Part shown: positions 23,473 through 35,399 of the stretch, piece after piece
Position numbering within the stretch: position 1 is the stretch's first letter
Layout of the letters: the number at the start of each line of letters is the position of its first letter
From: an uncultured Bacillota bacterium
GTDB lineage: Bacteria > Bacillota_I > Bacilli_A > RF39 > UBA660
DNA: 64,000 nt
Assembly (NCBI GenBank): GCA_946622285.1
Contig: CAMOPK010000001.1
Coordinates: 41,343 to 105,342, forward strand
Reading direction: 5' to 3'
The notes under the pieces: generated by a model
What the model was told of the DNA's origin: nothing
Seen by the model: only the letters and a program-made list of their open reading frames with translations
Databases searched by the model: none
Translations under genes and position numbers: made by a program

Positions 23473-25347
23473 TTATTTCAATATGTATAATTGATAACCA
23501 TATGTTTTACGACCAGTATCATATCCGGATATCATAAATCTTGATGTGTCACGATCCATACGTTCTAACTCACCATCATAAGAGTCAATTATAAGTAAAT
23601 CTTGTTCACTCATAGTTGATCCTGATGTTACTGACTTTTTATAGCCAACTACTGTTACATAGTGACGTGATGTTCCGGCTTTATTTCCATTTACATGGAT
23701 AACCATTGGTTGTCCAGCATTAATAAGTTCATATACCTTTTCTAAAACAACTTGTTTATCATCATTTTTAAATTCATGGAAACGACCAGCATACATATAT
23801 TTTGATGCTTCAGGTGCGCTCATTCCATTTATATTGTCACCATTATATAAGTTATATGCATGATAATATGCAAATGATAAACACATATCTGGATATCCTG
23901 GTGGATCATTCTGAGCAACTCTTAATCTCTTAACTGTCTTTGCAAATTCGACTGTATCATTTTTAGCTGCAACAAGTACATATTCTGTTGAATCAATGAC
24001 AGTTGAGCTTCCAGGTGGACGACCTGATACGGTTGGTTCTTCTTTAATTGTTACATCACATTTTAAAGTTGTTTCATTTCCTACTAAATCTTTTACTTTA
24101 ACAGAAACTGTAGTTGATTTTTGACTTGCTTTATAATTTGTTTCTTTCTTATATTCAGTTGCTGTTCCATCTAGTATATAACTATATCCAGCTATACCTT
24201 TATTGTCGCTTGCACTTACATCAACAACAGTGTTTGATCCTTGTACTAATGCTGAACATGTTCCTGATGGTGGAATATTATCGATGTTGTTAACATCAAT
24301 TTCCTTAATAATTTTATTTCCATATATATCTTGGATTGTAAATGAATATTTTCCATTATTTCTTACAGTTTGTTCATAGTGACGGCTTATTTCACTTACC
24401 GGTTTAATAATGCGGTCATAACCTTTACCTTTTATATCAAGAGATAATTTTACTTCTCGTGTTATTTCCTCTGTACTTTTTGATAAAGTTATATCTAAGT
24501 CTGCTTTATACTTTACGACTGTTATTGTACGTGTATCAATAGCAGTATTTCCTTTTGAATTAGTGACACTATATGTAATTGTATAAATAGCTGGTTTTTT
24601 GGTGTCAATTTTTTCAGGATTAGGTGATACTCGAACTTGACGACTTATTTTTCCATCTTCAAAGTCAATTGCCGTATATCCTTCTTCAACATATTTTTGA
24701 TTTACTTGAAGAACAATATTTTTGTCTCCCATTAAAGTCAACGTTGGATCTTCACGATTTTTAAGTGGAGTTACATTCTCGCCTTTATCGTTTTCAGTTA
24801 CAATGACAGTACGATAAACTGTTTCTTTTAAATCTCCATCATATACTTTATAACTAAGTGTATAAACACCTGGTTCAGTTCCAACCTTACCTGTAATTAC
24901 AACATCAGCATCTCTCGTTAAGGTGTAATTCTTTTCTTCATATACTTCACCTTTATTTAAGATAACAATGTCGCCGCCAAGCAAAGTAATATACTTAGTA
25001 CTCTTTAATTGTATAGTTGATTCATAATTGTCACACTTTAAATATGGTAAATAATTTATTTTACCATTTTCATTTTTAACAATTACACCACTTGCCTTAC
25101 TACAAAGTTCCGTTCCTTGAATGTCCCCAAGTTTTGTAATTGGAATGAAATCTTGATTAGTTATATTCATATTATTACTGGTAATATATTGTTTAGCTGC
25201 TAATATCATTTCACTCTCAATATCGTTATAACCTCTTTTACAACTCTTTAAAGCAAATAAAATGATAACAACTATTGCTAATAAAATAATATATTTTCCA
25301 TATTTGATTATACTTTTTAACTTATCTTCATCTTCTATTGAATTCAT
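23473..25347 (-). CDS. Membrane-anchored surface protein: N-terminal TM, tandem Ig-like (DUF5011-type) domains, C-terminal C39-like/YvpB-like cysteine peptidase domain
   Basis: Single N-terminal TM. Repeats of the pattern L.GD..I.L..G..Y.E.GY.A.D..DG.ISR. C-terminal Cys (DMCLSFAY) and His (SRHYVTVVGY) typical of Peptidase_C39_2. Confidence 0.5.
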   Translation of the reverse strand: MNSIEDEDKLKSIIKYGKYIILLAIVVIILFALKSCKRGYNDIESEMILAAKQYITSNNMNITNQDFIPITKLGDIQGTELCSKASGVIVKNENGKINYLPYLKCDNYESTIQLKSTKYITLLGGDIVILNKGEVYEEKNYTLTRDADVVITGKVGTEPGVYTLSYKVYDGDLKETVYRTVIVTENDKGENVTPLKNREDPTLTLMGDKNIVLQVNQKYVEEGYTAIDFEDGKISRQVRVSPNPEKIDTKKPAIYTITYSVTNSKGNTAIDTRTITVVKYKADLDITLSKSTEEITREVKLSLDIKGKGYDRIIKPVSEISRHYEQTVRNNGKYSFTIQDIYGNKIIKEIDVNNIDNIPPSGTCSALVQGSNTVVDVSASDNKGIAGYSYILDGTATEYKKETNYKASQKSTTVSVKVKDLVGNETTLKCDVTIKEEPTVSGRPPGSSTVIDSTEYVLVAAKNDTVEFAKTVKRLRVAQNDPPGYPDMCLSFAYYHAYNLYNGDNINGMSAPEASKYMYAGRFHEFKNDDKQVVLEKVYELINAGQPMVIHVNGNKAGTSRHYVTVVGYKKSVTSGSTMSEQDLLIIDSYDGELERMDRDTSRFMISGYDTGRKTYGYQLYILK

Positions 25348-25397: not shown

Positions 25398-27254
25398 TTA
25401 ATGGCATACTGCAAAAGATTTTGTATCCCTTGTTTTCTTAATAATATCCTTATTAGCATCCCATGTCTTTTTAGTAACTTTTTCACTATATGGGTCATTT
25501 ACAGCTATTTTTCCATCAGCTGTAACACCTTTTAGAACTATATAGTGTCCAGTATAAATACCAAAGGCATTTTTACCAACAAATGCGATTATTGGTTGTC
25601 CACTTCTTAAAGTATCTTTTAAAGTTGCTTCGTTTAAACTCTTCCATTCACAACTAACACCATATTTAGCAGCTGCTTTTGTTAATGCGGCTTTACCAAA
25701 TCCATTTCCATGGAAATATCCTTGGGCAACCAAATCTTCAAATATTAATTGTGGATTCTGGCTAATATTTCCAGTTAAATATGCTACAACCATTGATACT
25801 GACGTTGGCCCACAACCAAATCCTTTTACTGTTGTTGTTCCACCATACCATTTTATTGGTTTAGTATACATTGTTTGATAGAATGTTGGTATATTCATGA
25901 TACCATTTGTCATGCTACCATGCCCTGTTACTTTATTAACTTGACACGTAAATGTTGCATTGTTTCCATATGTATCTGTTACTTGTACTTTTGCTACTTT
26001 TAAAACTTTAGATGTTGAATAATATGATGTTGTACCTTCTTTAGTTTCTCCATCAATTATAAAGTTGTATGCTCTTATACCACTTTTGTCAGTTGCATTT
26101 ACAAATACGTTTGATCCTGTTGGTGCAACTGATGCGATACAAGATCCTGTTGGAGGTGTAATATCAATTCCATTAACATCGACATCTCTTATATATACGT
26201 TATTATATGAATCATATACTGCAAAATGATATGTGTCATTTTTAGGTGCTTTATATGTTATACTCGTTTTTGTTTCCTTAGTGCCGTCAGGTAGTATTGT
26301 ATGACTATAACCAGAACCAGTTATATTAAGGGTTATTGCATATCCTTTAGTTTGTTTTTTAATTGATGATTCAATAACAACATCGCTTTTCTTTAAAACG
26401 ACTTTAATTGTTCTAGTTTTAGTTACTGTTACTCCCCTAGAGTTAGTTACACTATATGTTATGGTATAATCTCCAATTGCTTTTGTTATTCTACTATCTT
26501 CAACACTACTTGTTTTTTTTACTTGACGGCTTATTTTTCCATCAACATAATCGACTGCTTTATAACCTGGTTCTTCGTATCTTTCTCCTCTTTCGAGAAT
26601 CATTATAGTATCACCATATAATTTAAGCGTCGGTTCATTGCTGTTTGTAACGCCACTATTAGTAGTTTCTTTATCATATTCTGTAACAATTACTTTTCTT
26701 GTTACAACTTGTTTTTCTTTACCTTCATCGATTATACGATAGTTAATTGTATATATACCAGGAGTTCTTTCAACCTTACCTTCTGTTATGACTTCAATAA
26801 CATCATCGCTGTAGTAACCTTTTTCTTCATAAAGTTCTCCTGAGTTTAAAATAACAACAGGATCTCCAGATAAAGTAATATATTTTTCACTATTAGAAAC
26901 TAGCTTTGTTTCATAGTCATTGCACTTTAAATAAGCTTCATATTTATACTTGTTATTTTTATTTGAAACAATTACACCACTTGCATTACTACAAAGTTCA
27001 GCACCTTCTACTTCACCTAATATTCCAAGTGGAACATAATATTCTTCTCCTTCGGGTACTTTAACACTATATGTTGCAACATATTCTTTTGCTTTTTCTA
27101 TAACAGTACTTTCAACATCACTATAGGTTACAACATAATGACTTATAATTGCCCAGATAGGAATTATAGGCAACAAAAAGAGCACGTATTTTAAGCGTGA
27201 TATTATTTTTTCTCTCTTTTCTTCAAAATCAATGCTGCCTATACTATCTAGCAT
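25398..27254 (-). CDS. Paralogous membrane-anchored Ig-like repeat protein with C-terminal C39-like cysteine peptidase domain
   Basis: Same architecture as the downstream gene; GFGCGPTSVSMVVAYL (Cys) and GHYIVLKGV (His). Confidence 0.5.
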   Translation of the reverse strand: MLDSIGSIDFEEKREKIISRLKYVLFLLPIIPIWAIISHYVVTYSDVESTVIEKAKEYVATYSVKVPEGEEYYVPLGILGEVEGAELCSNASGVIVSNKNNKYKYEAYLKCNDYETKLVSNSEKYITLSGDPVVILNSGELYEEKGYYSDDVIEVITEGKVERTPGIYTINYRIIDEGKEKQVVTRKVIVTEYDKETTNSGVTNSNEPTLKLYGDTIMILERGERYEEPGYKAVDYVDGKISRQVKKTSSVEDSRITKAIGDYTITYSVTNSRGVTVTKTRTIKVVLKKSDVVIESSIKKQTKGYAITLNITGSGYSHTILPDGTKETKTSITYKAPKNDTYHFAVYDSYNNVYIRDVDVNGIDITPPTGSCIASVAPTGSNVFVNATDKSGIRAYNFIIDGETKEGTTSYYSTSKVLKVAKVQVTDTYGNNATFTCQVNKVTGHGSMTNGIMNIPTFYQTMYTKPIKWYGGTTTVKGFGCGPTSVSMVVAYLTGNISQNPQLIFEDLVAQGYFHGNGFGKAALTKAAAKYGVSCEWKSLNEATLKDTLRSGQPIIAFVGKNAFGIYTGHYIVLKGVTADGKIAVNDPYSEKVTKKTWDANKDIIKKTRDTKSFAVCH

Positions 27255-29257: not shown

Positions 29258-29294
29258 ACAATAAAAAAATCTATAGAGATAATCTATAGATTTT
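29258..29294 (-). terminator. Terminator of the nrd operon (AAATCTATAG-AGATAAT-CTATAGATTT + T7), overlapping the stop of the last gene
   Basis: 10-bp perfect stem; T-run is the complement of 29261-29270. Confidence 0.55.
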
Positions 29295-30189
29295 TACTAT
29301 TTAAATAGTCAATTACATCAATTGCTGCGATTGTACCATCGTTAGTTGCTGTAGTAAGTTGTCTTACATTTTTAGTACGAACATCACCTGCTACAAAAAT
29401 GCCCTCTAAATTGGTATTCATATCAGTAGATTTGATATAACCATAATCGTCGATATCAATTAGATTTTTAAATATTTTACTTGTCGGAATACGACCAATT
29501 GATAAGAATATTCCATCTAATTTAATATCTTTTTCATTATTTACTTCTATTCCTGAAAAGTTTCCATTTTCATTTAAATATTTTGTAACTTTACTTGATA
29601 AGTTTATTTCGACATTAGATTTTTTACCTATTTCAGCAATATATCTTTCTTCACCAGTTAAGTGATCTAAGTCTTGAATAATTACTACTTTTTTGCACAA
29701 TTCAGATAGCGATAGAGCATTAATCAAAGCAGAGTTTCCACCACCTATAACGCCTACTACTTTATTATTGTAAAAAGCGCCATCGCAGGAAACACAAAAG
29801 TGAATTCCCGATCCGATAAAGTCTTCTTCACCCTCAAGATTTAGTTTACGATATTCACATCCAGTTGCAATAATGATTGATTTAGCTTGATATTCACCTG
29901 AATCAGTAATAACTTTTTTATCTTTTGTTATTTCTAATACTTCTTCAATTGCTATTTCACAACCAAGATTATCAACTTGTTCATATAAATTATTTGCAAG
30001 TTCAGCTCCGCTTATTGCTTTAAATCCTGGATAATTCTCAACAAGTGGAGAGGAAGCTATTTGGCCTCCTATCCCCTCTTTTTCAATCAATAAAACATTT
30101 TTATTAGCTCTTTTTAAATATATTGCTGCAGTTAATCCCGCAGGACCTGCTCCAATTATAATTGTGTCGTACATATTATTTTGACTCAA
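29284..30189 (-). CDS. Thioredoxin-reductase-like flavoprotein lacking the NADPH-binding HRRxxxR motif (FFTR-like, pyridine-nucleotide-independent type suspected)
   Basis: FAD fingerprint IIIGAGPAGLTAAIY, redox CxxC CVSCDG, second GGGNSA. Where E. coli TrxR has HLIHRRDGFRAEK this protein has VIIQDLDHLTGEE. Confidence 0.7.
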   Translation of the reverse strand: MSQNNMYDTIIIGAGPAGLTAAIYLKRANKNVLLIEKEGIGGQIASSPLVENYPGFKAISGAELANNLYEQVDNLGCEIAIEEVLEITKDKKVITDSGEYQAKSIIIATGCEYRKLNLEGEEDFIGSGIHFCVSCDGAFYNNKVVGVIGGGNSALINALSLSELCKKVVIIQDLDHLTGEERYIAEIGKKSNVEINLSSKVTKYLNENGNFSGIEVNNEKDIKLDGIFLSIGRIPTSKIFKNLIDIDDYGYIKSTDMNTNLEGIFVAGDVRTKNVRQLTTATNDGTIAAIDVIDYLNSKNL

Positions 30190-32542
30190 TATATTTCTTT
30201 ATGTTAGAAAGGTTCTTTACTTGTTCTACAGTACCTTTTTTAACAATAACTAATGTTGGTGCTTGAGTAACTCCACATTTCTTTGTAAGTTCTACTTCTT
30301 CTTCAGCATCAATAAATTTATATTTGATTTTTGCTTTATCAAGTAATGTTTTTGCCATTTTACAGTTTGGGCATGTTTTAGTTCCGAAAAGCATTATTCC
30401 ATCTTTTACGTCTTCAACTTTTTCAGTAGTGCAATTAGTTTCGCAAGCGCATTTTTCAACATGATGAGTATGATCTAATTCTTCATATTCAGTTCTGCTA
30501 TCATATTCACTTCGTTTTCCATCATTCCAATTTTTGATTGGACGATAGTATCCTGTTATACGGCTGTATACTTCAGCTTCTTCACCGCATTCTGGACATG
30601 TAAAGTGTTCCCCTGGCATATAGCCATGGTTCTTACATACTGAATATGTAGGTGATATTGTATAGTAAGGTAAACGATAGTTTTCAGCGATTGTTCTAAC
30701 TAATTTAGCTGCTGCTTTCCAATCTGTTAATCTTTCACCTAAGAATGCATGGAATACTGTTCCTGATGTATAAAGTGTTTGTAATTCATCTTGAATATCT
30801 AAAGCTGCAAAGATATCTTTTGTGAAATCTACAGGTAAATGTGATGAATTTGTATAGTATGGTTTTTGGCCTTCTTTTGCTGCTGTTATAATATCAGGAT
30901 ATTTTTCAACATCATGTTTAGCAAAACGATATGTTGTTGATTCTGCTGGAGTTGCTTCTAAGTTATATAGATCTCCATATTCTTCTTGATAATCTGATAA
31001 TTTTTCACGCATGAAGTTTAATACTTCTTTAGCAAATTTTTGTGTCTTTGGACTTGTTAAGTCTTCTCTTAACCATTTAGCATTTAAACCTACTTCATTC
31101 ATACCAATTAAACCAATTGTTGAGAAGTGATTATTAAATGTACCTAAATAACGTTTAGTATATGGATAAAGTCCTTCATCAAGTAATTTTGTAATTACAT
31201 TTCTCTTTACCTTTAAACTACGAGCTGCAATATCCATTAAACGTGTTAAACGCTTGTAAAAATCTTTTTCATCTGTTGCTAAATAAGCAATTCTTGGTAA
31301 GTTGATTGTTACAACTCCAATTGATCCAGTTGATTCGCCACTACCGAAGAAACCACCTGATTTCTTTCTTAATTCTCTTAGGTCTAGTCTTAAACGACAG
31401 CACATACTTCTTACATCACTTGGTTCCATATCACTGTTGATGTAATTTGAAAAGTATGGTGTACCATATTTAGCAGTCATTTCAAATAATAACTTATTGT
31501 TTTCTGTTTCACCCCAATTAAAATCACGAGTAATTGAGTATGTTGGAATTGGATATTGGAATCCACGGCCATTAGCATCTCCTTCAATCATGATTTCGAT
31601 GAATGCTTTATTTACCATATCCATTTCTTTTTGACAGTCTTTATATTTGAAATCCATTTCTTTGCCACCAACGATAGCATTTAATTCAGCTAAGTCATTT
31701 GGTACTGTCCAGTCAAGTGTAATATTAGTGAAAGGTGCTTGAGTTCCCCATCTACTTGGTGTATTAACGCCATAGATGAATGATTGAAGTCCTTGTTTTA
31801 CTTGTTTATAAGTTAAGTTATCAACTTTAACAAAAGGTGCTAGATAAGTATCAAATGATGAGAAAGCTTGTGCTCCAGCCCATTCATTTTGCATAATACC
31901 TAAGAAGTTAACCATTTGATTACAAAGTGTTGATAGGTGCTTTGCTGGTGATGAAGTAATCTTTCCTGGTACTCCACCTAGTCCTTCTTGAATTAATTGT
32001 TTTAAACTCCAACCTGCACAATATCCACTAAGCATTGATAAGTCATGGATATGAATATCAGCATTACGATGTGCATTTGCAATTTCTTCATCATATACTT
32101 CACTTAACCAATAATTTGCAGTGATTGCACCAGAGTTACTTAAAATTAATCCTCCGATTGAATATGTAACTGTTGAGTTTTCTTTTACTCTCCAGTCAGT
32201 TACATTAATATAACTATTAACAACATCACGATAGTTTAAAATCGCACCTTGCATGTTACGCATTTTTTCATGTTGTTTACGATACAAAATGTATGTTTTA
32301 GCAACTTCTGCATAACCAGCATTTGATAATACACTTTCTACACTATCTTGAATATCTTCTACTCTGATTGCGTTATTTTTGATGTTAGGTTGAAAATTAG
32401 CAGTTACTTTTAAAGCAAGTAGATCTAAAACATCATCATTGTATTCAGTTTCAGTTGCTTCAAATGCTCTTCTAATTGCACTTTTAATTCTCTCTATATC
32501 AAATTCAACAGTTTTTCCTTCTCTTGTTTTTACTTTATACAT
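30176..32542 (-). CDS. nrdD: Anaerobic ribonucleoside-triphosphate reductase NrdD (class III) with N-terminal ATP-cone and fused C-terminal glutaredoxin/NrdH-like domain
   Basis: ATP-cone MYKVKTREGKTVEFDIERIKSAI; ADIHIHDL; thiyl loop MCCRLRL; Zn site CKNHG...CPEC; glycyl-radical motif SRITGYYR; then ~100 extra residues with CACETNC and a TKTCPNCKMAK CPxC redoxin fold. Confidence 0.9.
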   Translation of the reverse strand: MYKVKTREGKTVEFDIERIKSAIRRAFEATETEYNDDVLDLLALKVTANFQPNIKNNAIRVEDIQDSVESVLSNAGYAEVAKTYILYRKQHEKMRNMQGAILNYRDVVNSYINVTDWRVKENSTVTYSIGGLILSNSGAITANYWLSEVYDEEIANAHRNADIHIHDLSMLSGYCAGWSLKQLIQEGLGGVPGKITSSPAKHLSTLCNQMVNFLGIMQNEWAGAQAFSSFDTYLAPFVKVDNLTYKQVKQGLQSFIYGVNTPSRWGTQAPFTNITLDWTVPNDLAELNAIVGGKEMDFKYKDCQKEMDMVNKAFIEIMIEGDANGRGFQYPIPTYSITRDFNWGETENNKLLFEMTAKYGTPYFSNYINSDMEPSDVRSMCCRLRLDLRELRKKSGGFFGSGESTGSIGVVTINLPRIAYLATDEKDFYKRLTRLMDIAARSLKVKRNVITKLLDEGLYPYTKRYLGTFNNHFSTIGLIGMNEVGLNAKWLREDLTSPKTQKFAKEVLNFMREKLSDYQEEYGDLYNLEATPAESTTYRFAKHDVEKYPDIITAAKEGQKPYYTNSSHLPVDFTKDIFAALDIQDELQTLYTSGTVFHAFLGERLTDWKAAAKLVRTIAENYRLPYYTISPTYSVCKNHGYMPGEHFTCPECGEEAEVYSRITGYYRPIKNWNDGKRSEYDSRTEYEELDHTHHVEKCACETNCTTEKVEDVKDGIMLFGTKTCPNCKMAKTLLDKAKIKYKFIDAEEEVELTKKCGVTQAPTLVIVKKGTVEQVKNLSNIKKYIESK

Positions 32543-32570: not shown

Positions 32571-33254
32571 CTATAAACCACGTATTTCTACGTTCTTTTC
32601 GTTTTTAAATATAGCTTTTATTTTTTCTAGCTCATCTGCTTCAAATCCAATTAAATTCTTATCAAGTACATCATCGCTCATTTTAAAGTTTTGAATATAA
32701 TACTTGCTTCCTTTAACTAGTTTATAAATTGATTTTACATCATCAATTGTATGATAATTCTTTATGAGTGTTGTCCTGAATTCATAATCAACACTACCAT
32801 TTTTTAATATTTTTATACTCTCTTTAAGAGCTTTTTCGTTGACTTTGCATTTAGCAACGATTTCATATTTATCAAGACTATTTTTTATATCCATCGCCAC
32901 ATAATCAACTAATTTATTGCTTACAAGTTCTTTTAATACTTTTGGATTGCTTCCATTTGTATCTAATTTAACTTTAAGTCCAATTGCTTTAACCTTTTTA
33001 ATGAAATTTATTAATTCTGGTTGAACTGTAGGTTCACCTCCAGATATTACAATTCCATCTAAAACATTTTTTCTAAGATTCAAGTAATCTAATATTTCTT
33101 CTTCAGAAAAGTTGCCTTTTTCTTTCTTGTGCAAAATTAATGAACTATTTTGACAATAAGAACATCTAAAATTGCATCCTCTTGTAAAAATAATGCAAGC
33201 AACATGTCCTGGATAATCTAGTAGAGTTAATTTATCAAATCCATCAATTATCAT
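32571..33254 (-). CDS. nrdG: Anaerobic RNR activating protein NrdG (radical SAM)
   Basis: CNFRCSYCQN radical-SAM cluster motif; operon context. Confidence 0.85.
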   Translation of the reverse strand: MIIDGFDKLTLLDYPGHVACIIFTRGCNFRCSYCQNSSLILHKKEKGNFSEEEILDYLNLRKNVLDGIVISGGEPTVQPELINFIKKVKAIGLKVKLDTNGSNPKVLKELVSNKLVDYVAMDIKNSLDKYEIVAKCKVNEKALKESIKILKNGSVDYEFRTTLIKNYHTIDDVKSIYKLVKGSKYYIQNFKMSDDVLDKNLIGFEADELEKIKAIFKNEKNVEIRGL

Positions 33255-35169
33255 AATTTACCTCCACATATTTTATTTTACTTGCTTCTAAGTCTGATAA
33301 AAGTTTAGTAAATTTTTTAAATTCAGCATTTTTTAGATTGATTGTACAAATTGCTGAAGTTAAACTTTGATATTTTGCTTGAAGTGTTAGTTGTGTGTCA
33401 AAACCTAATTTTGATTGATTAATAAATTTAGATACTGGTTCATAACAACTTTTATTGATTGTTTTCTCACTTCCAAACACACTTTTATCGATACGAATGA
33501 AACTATTTATTATTGATTGATCATATATTTCAGCAATCATGAAGTTTAATTTTAAATCATTACTTAAAGCTTCACATTTTTTATTCATTGCTTTGATAAC
33601 TTTAGTAAGCATTTCAAAATCTTCATTATTTAGTTTATTATCTGCTTTCTTATTTAATAAGAAGACTGCTTCAACAAGCCCAACAAATCCAATTACAAAT
33701 GCTCCATTACGCAATATTTTTCTAACTTTTTGGCCATCATCAAGTTTTTCAGAGTCATAAAGTAAACCTTTATTAAATAGAACATTATAATTTTCTTTAA
33801 TTTTACCTGATTGAACTTCAAATCTTTGCATAAGTGCATTTTTTGCAAGCTCCATGACATTATCAAGTTCCTTTAAAAAATCATTTATGCAGGTATTTTT
33901 CAAAGCAAGTCTGGCCAAATTAATGGTTGAAATCGAATTAATTGTTCTTCCTCTTGATGTTTCAGTTCCATTTATATTATTAAATACACATATTCCATTT
34001 GAGAAATAATTAACATCATGATTTTTACCAAATACAAAGTGAATTTTATTTGATTTAGTTTTTTCAAACAAAACCTTATTTATTTCTTCGTCATTATTAA
34101 TATATATATTAGTAATTACCTTTGATTTCGGTTTTAATGCTTTGAAATAATTGATAATTATCATTTTACTTATGAATGAGTCATCATTATCAAGGCATAT
34201 TACAATATTTTTCTTTAAAATTGTATCAATAATATCAAATAATCTTTCGAAGTTATCTTTTATTAACCTATTCAGTTTTTTAATTGTTTGATTGTAAGTA
34301 ATTTCAAAAATATTTTTTAATACGCCATTTTTTAACTCAGTATTAAGAAAATCTTTATCTTCAATATTTGTTAATGGTTTTACTAATTCTTCAACTTTAT
34401 TTCTATCTATATATATATCTAAACCATTTATACTTAAGTTATTCCAAAATTCTTTTAGAAATATATCTTTAAAATCATTTAATACTCTTGTTGATAAAAT
34501 TCTATCAAAGTTCATTAAAGTTTGTTCTTGATATTGATCTGATTCTACTAGAATAATTGTATGAATTATCTCAGTCATAAAACTTTGAACTGTTTTTAAA
34601 TCTTCAAAATCAACATTCAAGTTACTTGAACAAGGAGTTCCAAATGTATAATTATCTAATCCATTTATTGCAATTATTCCTTCTTCAATGCCTTTTTCAA
34701 CTTTGCCTTCAATTAAGTAAGCTGTTGCAAATTCCTTTGAAATTACTTCAGCAAAGTTAGATATGAGTTCATTTGGTTTTTGATCATTTGCTTCATTTGC
34801 CAAATAGCCAACTTTTTCCATGGCTTTAACAAATTTATGTTGTGGTCTTATTCCAAATACATCCCTTGACTTTGCTCTACGTAAGCGATAATCACTAAAT
34901 GAATTATAAACATTTATGTACCCTGCTTTTTTCAAAGATTCTTCAATGATATTTTGAATGTCTTCAACATTGATAGTTTTTCTTGTTTTGTAGTTTTCAG
35001 CAATTGTTTTTAAAACTAACTCATAAACTTTGTTTACATCTTTAACATTTGGGTCTTCATAGACGCTTCCAAAGCCTTTTCCTATAGCAATTGCAATTTT
35101 TGTACCATTGAATGCTACTCTTTGACCAGTTCTCTTAACAACTACGAGATCTTTAAATTCTTCTTTCAT
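33244..35169 (-). CDS. NrdD-like protein with ATP-cone but without glycyl-radical motif, Zn-ribbon or thiyl Cys pair (probable pseudo-enzyme / regulatory paralogue)
   Basis: ATP-cone VVKRTGQRVAFNGTKIAIAIG...VEDIQNIIEESLKKAGY. EGIIAINGLDNY aligns with NrdD ADIHIHDLSMLSGY, and TINSISTINLARLALKN...LKEL aligns with NrdD IGVVTINLPRIAYLAT. C-terminus ends ...KYVEVNYDN with no RxxGY and no CxxC. Overlaps nrdG by 11 nt. Confidence 0.6.
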   Translation of the reverse strand: MKEEFKDLVVVKRTGQRVAFNGTKIAIAIGKGFGSVYEDPNVKDVNKVYELVLKTIAENYKTRKTINVEDIQNIIEESLKKAGYINVYNSFSDYRLRRAKSRDVFGIRPQHKFVKAMEKVGYLANEANDQKPNELISNFAEVISKEFATAYLIEGKVEKGIEEGIIAINGLDNYTFGTPCSSNLNVDFEDLKTVQSFMTEIIHTIILVESDQYQEQTLMNFDRILSTRVLNDFKDIFLKEFWNNLSINGLDIYIDRNKVEELVKPLTNIEDKDFLNTELKNGVLKNIFEITYNQTIKKLNRLIKDNFERLFDIIDTILKKNIVICLDNDDSFISKMIIINYFKALKPKSKVITNIYINNDEEINKVLFEKTKSNKIHFVFGKNHDVNYFSNGICVFNNINGTETSRGRTINSISTINLARLALKNTCINDFLKELDNVMELAKNALMQRFEVQSGKIKENYNVLFNKGLLYDSEKLDDGQKVRKILRNGAFVIGFVGLVEAVFLLNKKADNKLNNEDFEMLTKVIKAMNKKCEALSNDLKLNFMIAEIYDQSIINSFIRIDKSVFGSEKTINKSCYEPVSKFINQSKLGFDTQLTLQAKYQSLTSAICTINLKNAEFKKFTKLLSDLEASKIKYVEVNYDN

Positions 35170-35306
35170 AAACTTTCGCCTTTCTATTTTTGGCTACTGT
35201 AATCATATTACCAAATTGGAGAAAAAATAGCAATATTTTTTTGTAAATTTTTTTACATTTTTTTAAAATTATTTTTTTGATTTTTTTGATTTTTTTCTAA
35301 AAAAAA

Positions 35307-35332
35307 CATTTTGTATTTTTTACACAAAATGT
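35307..35332. promoter_or_regulatory. Inverted repeat ACATTTTGT-N9-ACAAAATGT in the nrd operon leader (candidate repressor box; NrdR-box-like ACA...TGT half-sites)
   Basis: Seen in sequence between the hypothetical gene terminator and the putative nrd promoter (-35 TTGCTA / TGgTAATAT at ~35232-35204). A third copy of ACAAAATGT lies at 35371-35379. Confidence 0.25.
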
Positions 35333-35354
35333 CTTTTCTTTTGAAATATAAGGG

Positions 35355-35385
35355 TTAATATAAAAAACGACAAAATGTCGTTTTT
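35355..35385 (-). terminator. Rho-independent terminator (ACGACA-AAA-TGTCGT + T-run) after the 35400..36347 gene
   Basis: 6-bp stem at 35367-35382; minus strand continues TTTTTTAT. Confidence 0.5.
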
Positions 35386-35399
35386 TTGTTTTTTATTTT

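Follow-up and report, generated by a model that had tools for sequence, protein, structure and literature searches.

A tightly packed operon of four genes, nrdD'-nrdG-nrdD::grx-trxB', was found on the minus strand (35169 to 29284) of a 64,000-nucleotide stretch of DNA from an uncultured Bacillota bacterium (contig CAMOPK010000001.1, positions 41,343 to 105,342; hereafter the window). It encodes a paralogue of NrdD, the activase NrdG, the class III ribonucleotide reductase (RNR) catalytic subunit with a redoxin domain fused to its C-terminus, and a low-Mr flavoprotein resembling thioredoxin reductase (TrxR). On balance, the operon probably constitutes a self-contained, thiol-dependent class III RNR, in which electrons would pass from NADH over a dedicated TrxR and the tethered redoxin to a disulfide in NrdD.

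Domain content, folds, motifs, conservation and synteny of this system were observed directly. The proposed course of the reaction is as follows. NrdG would install the glycyl radical on Gly664 of NrdD, from where the radical would move on to a cysteine of the MCCR finger loop. In each turnover two electrons would be drawn from Cys175 and one MCCR cysteine, with Glu529 as proton donor, and an active-site disulfide would be left behind. The CPNC-containing redoxin domain, tethered past the glycyl-radical domain by some 27 disordered linker residues, could then swing in and re-reduce this disulfide, and would itself be re-reduced by the FAD- and CVSC-containing flavoprotein encoded 1 nt downstream. 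The latter has lost the three arginines for the 2'-phosphate of NADPH and kept the pyrophosphate loop, and would take its electrons from NADH, as is reported for the reductase of Thermotoga maritima.

Catalytic subunit and active site

The NrdD and TrxR-like open reading frames (ORFs) noticed in a preliminary description of this DNA were both found in place on the minus strand, on which all operon features below are located. The nrdD::grx gene (30176-32542) encodes a protein of 788 aa, which scored 1146.7 bits against NF006126 (PRK08270; cut-off 548). Its N-terminal ATP-cone, the allosteric activity site, covers residues 3-92 (32267-32536; PF03477, E 3.7e-19) and is followed by an NRDD match at residues 121-686 (PF13597, E 2.4e-193), which spans the full profile to position 562 of 562. 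Inside this match, at 30545-30637, lie the zinc-ribbon ligands CKNH (residues 636-639) and CPEC (649-652) and the glycyl-radical motif RITGYY (661-666, with Gly664). The protein thus has the NRDD barrel, the C-terminal glycyl-radical motif and the zinc ribbon of a class III RNR catalytic subunit.

Class III enzymes divide at one node into those with a single-cysteine MGCR and those with a double-cysteine (M/S)CCR finger loop, and the double-cysteine motif marks the thiol-reducible lineage (PMC9669993). Thiol-dependent NrdDs are further marked by a glutamate and a third cysteine in the active site (PMC4493059). All of these residues are present in the window protein. Its finger loop, Met380-Cys381-Cys382-Arg383 (31394-31405), is of the double-cysteine type. 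The third cysteine, Cys175 in GYCAGW (32018-32020), is placed on the reducing face of the substrate and corresponds to T. maritima Cys125 in the HMMER alignment to the T. maritima NrdD structure 4coi; the role of this strand cysteine is described in PMC4493059 and PMC9669993. In the same alignment YNLE pairs with FNIE, by which Glu529 (30956-30958) matches T. maritima Glu495, the residue proposed to donate the proton in thiol-dependent NrdDs (PMC9669993). Conservation was assessed in an alignment of 81 sequences of NrdD relatives, the basis of all counts out of 81 given here. Cys175, MCCR, Glu529 and Gly664 are present in every sequence, and the GYCAGW hexamer is identical in 80.

The preliminary description had regarded the enzyme as dependent on a disulfide relay and not on formate. 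When its active-site residues were aligned, they were not of the formate type alone, but formate chemistry is still possible by sequence because of the methionine in MCCR, which also fits such chemistry (PMC9669993). Formate would then be the catalytic reductant, acting through a thiosulfuranyl radical between Met380 and Cys175, and the redoxin and reductase would have some other use, such as the removal of oxygen-induced disulfides or redox-gating. The invariance of Met380 in the 81 sequences agrees with such a role, as does the published view that MCCR enzymes are equipped for formate or thioredoxin (PMC9669993), and about a quarter of the related loci, largely from Lachnospiraceae, have no adjacent reductase gene. 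However, the second finger-loop cysteine and Glu529 are equally invariant, and SCCR enzymes need both finger-loop cysteines (PMC4493059). A permanent redoxin fusion in several hundred species, together with an operonic reductase, would be costly for occasional repair, and a fused glutaredoxin has precedent as a catalytic reductant of RNR (PMC6187632). We regard formate as an unlikely catalytic reductant of this enzyme.

Fused redoxin domain and linker

The glutaredoxin/thioredoxin-fold domain at the C-terminus of NrdD comprises residues 714-788 (30179-30403), with CPNC at Cys724-Cys727 and the cis-Pro loop APT at 761-763. Pfam matched Glutaredoxin to residues 716-766 (PF00462, E 1.7e-8; 35 bits, cut-off 22.9) and also Thioredoxin (E 3.5e-6). 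Residues 690-788 were modelled by AlphaFold2 using an alignment of 26 relatives. The part from about residue 710 to 788 was predicted with a pLDDT of about 90 as a beta-alpha-beta-alpha-beta-beta-alpha redoxin fold, in which helix 1 starts at the CxxC and the cis-Pro loop is in place. When PDB structures were searched with this model by Foldseek, thioredoxins and glutaredoxins matched at probability 1.0, the best of them being desulfothioredoxin 2L6C; the latter was also the sole redoxin matched by sequence in the PDB (E 5.4e-6; 27% identity over about 90 alignment columns). All 81 sequences carry the CxxC motif, 78 of them in the form CPNC; the APT loop is conserved. The CPxC redoxin module of the preliminary description is borne out by these three lines of evidence.

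The domain scored far below the cut-offs for NrdH-redoxin (TIGR02194, 22.4 vs 85.75 bits) and YruB (TIGR02196, 24.4 vs 88.55 bits), and it is a redoxin subfamily distinct from both. Glutathione-dependent glutaredoxins have a CPYC-type site and the glutathione-binding motifs TVP and GG-x-DD. None of these was found in the fused domain, which carries CPNC, APT and, at the place of GGxDD, NLSNIKK. A search with the 84-aa redoxin domain gave 686 matches at E <= 0.001 and 200 at E <= 1e-10. Those looked at were short, and several turned out to be chimeric calls or pieces of the NrdD C-terminus; free-standing relatives were not cleanly resolved among them. One metagenomic protein of 309 aa (P0126) has two CPNC redoxin copies with proline/alanine-rich repeats between them and no NrdD part.

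The redoxin domain is connected to the NrdD core by a flexible linker of residues ~687-713 (30404-30484), modelled at low confidence (pLDDT about 40), which contains CACETNC at 698-704. This motif was considered as a conserved shuttle pair comparable to the C-terminal tails of class I and II enzymes. It was rejected as a conserved relay element because the linker varies in length across the 81 sequences (15-49 aa, median 29), is unconserved in sequence and has no cysteine in 33 of them. Short cysteine-rich patches (CxC, CC or CxCxC) occur in the linkers of about 60% of the relatives; 26 of the 81 have exactly two cysteines, and locus L001 has six. Such patches might bind metal or act in a relay on a facultative basis, or they might be neutral.

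Distribution and gene order

The fusion is widespread. All of the 120 closest NrdD clusters at 90% identity carry a fused redoxin, recognised as PF13597 with PF00462 in 119 and with PF00085 (Thioredoxin) in the remaining one, P0003. In a scan of one genome per species, at least 600 stretches matched, of which 598 were confirmed, so that close relatives are encoded by at least 598 species-level genomes. The best 80 of these confirmed matches, on which all locus analyses are based, align up to residue ~785 and so cover the redoxin domain. They include metagenome-assembled genomes (MAGs) of Bacilli as well as Oscillospiraceae, Acutalibacteraceae and Lachnospiraceae, and among the cultured carriers are Roseburia lenta, Anaerocolumna aminovalerica, Lacrimispora, Anaerosporobacter faecicola and Pseudoflavonifractor phocaeensis.

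Immediately downstream, nrdD::grx is followed by a TrxR-like gene in 58 of the 80 loci, and the same four-gene cassette was seen in two more relatives that were sampled via the TrxR-like protein. Dozens of genomes share this order of domains and of genes, so neither the fusion nor the arrangement is due to chance. From this synteny we infer that the reductase is part of the module and dedicated to the tethered redoxin. Taken with the double-cysteine and glutamate active site and the redoxin-fold module, the linked reductases support the disulfide-relay class III RNR that had been proposed for the window. Loci without an adjacent reductase, about a quarter, are mostly from Lachnospiraceae or at contig ends. 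In such Lachnospiraceae loci (L038, L053, L056, L064 and others), the ORFs next downstream of nrdD::grx often look like pyrimidine biosynthesis genes, resembling by sequence reading orotidine monophosphate decarboxylase, orotate phosphoribosyltransferase and dihydroorotase, which suggests a putative nucleotide-supply cluster.

The architecture had been called poorly described. This is correct for the literature, where one Grx:NrdD fusion is listed (PMC6187632) and our full-text search found no study of this architecture or its linked reductase. It is not correct for genomes: the architecture is very common in gut Firmicutes and uncharacterised, rather than a rarity. In databases the members of the family are annotated plainly as 'ribonucleoside triphosphate reductase' and 'thioredoxin reductase'.

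Linked flavoprotein

The reductase gene (29284-30174) encodes 296 aa when read from ATG, or 301 aa from a TTG at 30189. The 14-nt overlap with nrdD given in the preliminary description exists only if this TTG is the start; with the ATG at 30174 it disappears, and the ATG then sits 1 nt past the nrdD stop (TAAtATG). The reductases of relatives start at the equivalent MYD, and public gene calls record the 296-aa ATG product. With either start codon the two genes are tightly coupled.

The protein was recognised as Pfam Pyr_redox_2 (E 2.5e-45) and keeps the motifs of a low-Mr TrxR: GAGPAG for FAD, the redox disulfide CVSC (residues 132-135 in TTG numbering; 29785-29796), aligned to CAVC/CATC of solved TrxRs, and GGGNSA (29728-29745), the retained dinucleotide pyrophosphate-binding loop. 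Features of an NADPH-dependent TrxR are missing. The score against TIGR01292, 294.8 bits, is under the cut-off of 343.45, and QDLDHLT (29656-29676) stands in place of the NADPH 2'-phosphate site HRRxxxR. This replacement is real because HMMER pairs KVVIIQDLDHLTGEE of the window protein with KVTIVHRRDTLRAQK of the solved TrxR 7aaw, setting QDLDHLT against HRRDTLR; in 7jyp the aligned motif is QNLPYLT. Motifs and PDB alignments therefore agree with the preliminary description of a TrxR-like flavoprotein that has FAD and CVSC sites and no HRR, and the 2'-phosphate site is indeed absent.

The 120 closest reductase clusters (58-100% identity) are uniformly of the same type as the window protein: CVSC was found in 91, GGGNSA in 115 and Q[NDLM][LM] in about 105, with HRR in none. 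More variation is present among reductases linked to nrdD. At the HRR position of the 58 downstream reductases, QxL was found in 41, HRR in 13 and other motifs in four; with the window protein added, Q[NDM]Lxx[LFVM]T is carried by 42, canonical HRRxxFR by 13 and other motifs by four. GGGNSA is kept in nearly all of them. Even within the small clade of the window protein the site toggles between QxL and the basic variants VREETIR and CRKDKLK, which in sequence looks like switching of specificity between NADH and NADPH.

In a neighbour-joining tree the nrdD-linked reductases cluster apart from five solved housekeeping TrxRs. At the thioredoxin-docking motif, which is G(R/K)G in TrxRs, the QxL clade reads G(E/N/D)G and the window protein GSG. 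Tree and docking motif both speak for a dedicated partner, and the altered motif fits an adaptation to a non-canonical one, the fused domain.

Electron donor of the reductase

Absence of HRR had been taken in the preliminary description as the mark of an FFTR- or DTR-type enzyme linked to ferredoxin or flavodoxin. As a non-NADPH enzyme the reductase is plausible, since the 2'-phosphate site is gone, but the assignment to ferredoxin found no support. The pyrophosphate loop GGGNSA is retained, and in a comparison that rests on PDB E-values the protein is much closer to the NAD(P)H-type TrxR 7aaw (2.7e-65) than to FFTR 6gna (9e-37) or DTR 5j60 (1e-32). It has no C-terminal aromatic tail of the DTR type, as its alignment to NADPH-type TrxRs reaches within about five residues of the protein end. 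A motif search and clustering of neighbouring ORFs revealed no ferredoxin or flavodoxin gene that recurs near the cassette.

Previous work shows how these enzyme types differ. The NADH-dependent TrxRs T. maritima TR and Desulfovibrio vulgaris TR3 have no HRR and keep GGGxxAxE (PMC5627308), while both motifs are lost in the NAD(P)H-independent TRi and FFTR (PMC5627308, PMC10880999). The TR of Thermoplasma acidophilum, also without HRRxxxR but with the GGGxxA loop, was first called pyridine-nucleotide-independent and later shown to be NADH-dependent (PMC6262447), a direct precedent against taking a missing HRR as a sign of nucleotide independence. T. maritima TR is reported, in the account given by PMC5627308, to prefer NADH over NADPH.

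The window protein has the motif combination of the Thermotoga-type enzymes, GGGxSA with Q-x-L-x-x-L-T, in the form IIQDLDHLTGEE. Its second-best PDB match, 7JYP, is a Thermosipho TrxR with VQNLPYLTAAK. The motif class is widespread among Thermotogota: VQNLPxLTA occurs in the TrxRs of Thermosipho, Fervidobacterium and Kosmotoga, QLLETLTAAK in that of a Thermotoga sp., and VQDLPYLTAEK in that of a TA06 bacterium; GGG(D/N)SA is kept in the latter and in the Thermotogota enzymes. On the basis of the kept loop, the likeness to the Thermotogota motif, the overall similarity to NAD(P)H-type TrxRs, the lack of a syntenic ferredoxin or flavodoxin gene and the toggling between QxL and basic variants, NADH is favoured by analogy as the most likely source of electrons for the reductase.

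A pyridine-nucleotide-independent reductase of the FFTR, DTR or TRi kind, fed by reduced ferredoxin or flavodoxin, would couple the RNR to low-potential fermentative carriers. We consider this unlikely. The absent HRRxxxR and the TIGR01292 score below the cut-off would agree with it, and FFTRs are common among anaerobic Firmicutes (PMC10880999), to which the hosts belong. Against it, the window protein and 115 of the 120 clusters keep GGGNSA, a loop that FFTR and TRi lose (PMC10880999, PMC5627308). FFTR and DTR are the much weaker PDB matches, the C-terminal end is no longer than in NADPH-type TrxRs and lacks the DTR tail (PMC8154056), no ferredoxin or flavodoxin gene is syntenic, and the T. 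acidophilum enzyme is a precedent for the wrong conclusion (PMC6262447). Nucleotide-independent variants may nevertheless exist in the wider family, as suggested by two nrdD-linked reductases from Bacilli/Clostridia MAGs (L074, 8366-9277; L077, 8362-9273), in which the loop is degenerate (GDGNSA/GDANSA) and TLFDKFF stands in place of HRR. Unlike the window protein, these two have the motif pattern expected of NAD(P)H-independent TrxRs; the PDB search places that of L074 closest to NAD(P)H-type TrxRs as well. In both loci nrdG lies downstream on the opposite strand.

It is also quite unlikely that the reductase uses NADPH, or NADH and NADPH equally. QDL would then lower discrimination between the two, and the system would be the ordinary NrdD2/thioredoxin/TrxR/NADPH pathway in fused and clustered form. 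A canonical HRRxxFR enzyme does occupy the same operon position in 13 of 58 loci, the Neisseria bacilliformis system is NADPH-driven as cited in PMC4493059 and PMC9176816, and T. maritima TR is described as preferring NADH, not as NADH-specific, in the account of PMC5627308. In the window protein, however, the three 2'-phosphate arginines and His175 of the site are replaced by Gln, Asp, Leu and Thr, which puts an Asp in the pocket, and the strong conservation of the replacement motif argues for a distinct specificity rather than decay.

Several points weigh against the NADH-driven thiol relay preferred here. Where the second Rossmann strand ends, the textbook residue is acidic, but most family members have Gln-Asn, so that NADH binding is argued by analogy. 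The Thermotogota motif is found on a different branch of the neighbour-joining tree and would thus be convergent, not inherited. One of its carriers, P0316, is labelled 'Thermotoga sp.' and not T. maritima, and the NADH preference of T. maritima TR is known via a citing paper (PMC5627308). The methionine of MCCR makes formate chemistry possible by sequence (PMC9669993). The family itself is known from sequence alone, from which we infer all electron-transfer steps and the identity of the donor.

Activase and NrdD paralogue

NrdG (32571-33254, 227 aa) scored 215.5 bits against TIGR02495 (NrdG2; cut-off 131) and matched Pfam Radical_SAM and Fer4_12. Its gene is located upstream of nrdD in most related loci, and in the window its start overlaps the paralogue gene by 11 nt.

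The paralogue, encoded by the first gene of the operon (33244-35169, 641 aa), has a Pfam ATP-cone at residues 9-99 and an NRDD match at 367-639, which covers profile positions 241-506 of 562. Because it lacks a glycyl-radical domain and carries GICV at the finger loop in place of MCCR (GICVFN aligns to SMCCRL of NrdD in BLASTP), it is probably catalytically dead. It was found at the same position in L001-L003 and L082-L084 (for example L001, 221-2062; L002, 3368-5266; L082, 1049-2941; L083, 944-2929), and diverges fast, with 32-39% identity within the window's clade as against ~80% for NrdD. Possibly the paralogue is a pseudo-enzyme with a regulatory or scaffolding role.

If the paralogue were such a regulatory or scaffold partner of NrdD::redoxin, and the QxL reductase drew on a donor other than NAD(P)H (ferredoxin or flavodoxin), the cassette would form an RNR holoenzyme of a new kind, a reading that we hold to be highly doubtful. 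Were it true, synthesis of deoxynucleoside triphosphates (dNTPs) would be tied directly to the fermentative low-potential electron pool.

Relation to known systems

In its chemistry, the relay proposed for the window corresponds to the thiol-dependent class III RNR NrdD2 of N. bacilliformis and T. maritima (Wei et al. 2014, in the summaries of PMC4493059 and PMC9669993). NrdD2 shares the glycyl-radical NrdD, double-cysteine loop, strand cysteine and active-site glutamate, and its disulfide is reduced by a thioredoxin-type protein and not by formate. According to the same summaries, NrdD2 relies on a separate housekeeping redoxin and reductase, with NADPH in N. bacilliformis, whereas here the redoxin is fused and a specialised HRR-less reductase is encoded in the operon. 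The finger loop is SCCR in NrdD2 and MCCR here, and the window protein has little sequence identity with T. maritima NrdD (E 5e-40). MCCR is the NrdDh4 variant (PMC4493059), while the sole published Grx:NrdD fusion, from Lachnospiraceae bacterium TWA4 in a RefSeq survey, is filed under subclass NrdDd (PMC6187632).

Like NrdD3 of Methanosarcina barkeri (Wei et al. 2015, as cited in PMC5704485 and PMC9176816), the present operon encodes its own redoxin and reductase, there suited to the carriers of the host. As far as those citations describe it, the M. barkeri system differs in having a [4Fe-4S] FTR-type ferredoxin:disulfide reductase, a separate NrdH-like redoxin and no active-site glutamate; the reductase here is a flavoprotein. 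A glutaredoxin fold fused to an RNR subunit is also known from Facklamia ignava, where it was experimentally found to be the physiological reductant (Grx::ATP-cone::NrdB; PMC6187632). This fusion, however, belongs to class I, is N-terminal, is located on the radical-generating subunit and depends on glutathione (PMC6187632).

For the reductase, the Thermotogota TrxRs (T. maritima TR, Yang & Ma 2010 as cited in PMC5627308; Thermosipho 7JYP) share the low-Mr architecture with FAD and CxxC, GGG(D/N)SA and Q-(N/L/D)-L-x-x-L-T, and T. maritima TR is reported in PMC5627308 to work with a glutaredoxin-like protein. They differ in being housekeeping enzymes without linkage to nrdD, on another tree branch and with GRG as docking motif in place of GSG. 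Clostridial FFTR and cyanobacterial DTR/FFTR (6GNA-6GND, 5J60; PMC8154056, PMC10880999) likewise have the low-Mr TrxR fold, FAD and CxxC without HRRxxxR, but FFTRs are also without GxGxxA, the clostridial ones are shorter (288 aa), and DTR carries a C-terminal aromatic tail (PMC8154056, PMC10880999). The D. vulgaris pair of TR3 and desulfothioredoxin (PMC5627308; 2L6C) also combines an atypical small redoxin with an HRR-less, GGGxxAxE-keeping, NADH-preferring reductase; it has no link to RNR, and the likeness to the window reductase is by description.

Upstream region and other genes of the window

No NrdR operator boxes were found upstream of the operon. Two AT-rich palindromes are present there on the minus strand, ACATTTTGT-N9-ACAAAATGT at 35300-35335 and TGTAAAAAAATTTACA at 35241-35256, flanked by a terminator-like hairpin (35362-35386) and a promoter-like TTGCTA-N17-TAATAT site. 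Neither agrees with the consensus of NrdR boxes; the two may represent an operator.

Within the 64-kb window no second TrxR or thioredoxin was found. Two paralogous ORFs that lie side by side (23473-25347 and 25398-27254, minus strand; about 620 aa each) have the look of surface proteins, each with an N-terminal membrane anchor, Ig-like repeats and a C-terminal segment resembling a cysteine peptidase or amidase.

Significance

For the reductant of the MCCR lineage, sequence allows formate or thioredoxin (PMC9669993). The fusion and the operonic reductase, found across hundreds of gut Firmicutes, are strong genomic evidence for a thiol relay, and they make available a complete three-protein system for reconstitution, in which it could be tested what reduces class III RNRs of the MCCR type. 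The HRR-less reductases with Q-x-L-x-x-L-T and the GGG loop form a conserved motif class, which should not be regarded as ferredoxin-dependent by default, and surveys based on the presence or absence of HRR would misassign it. For the gut anaerobes that carry this operon, the results suggest a dNTP supply wired to NADH and not to NADPH.

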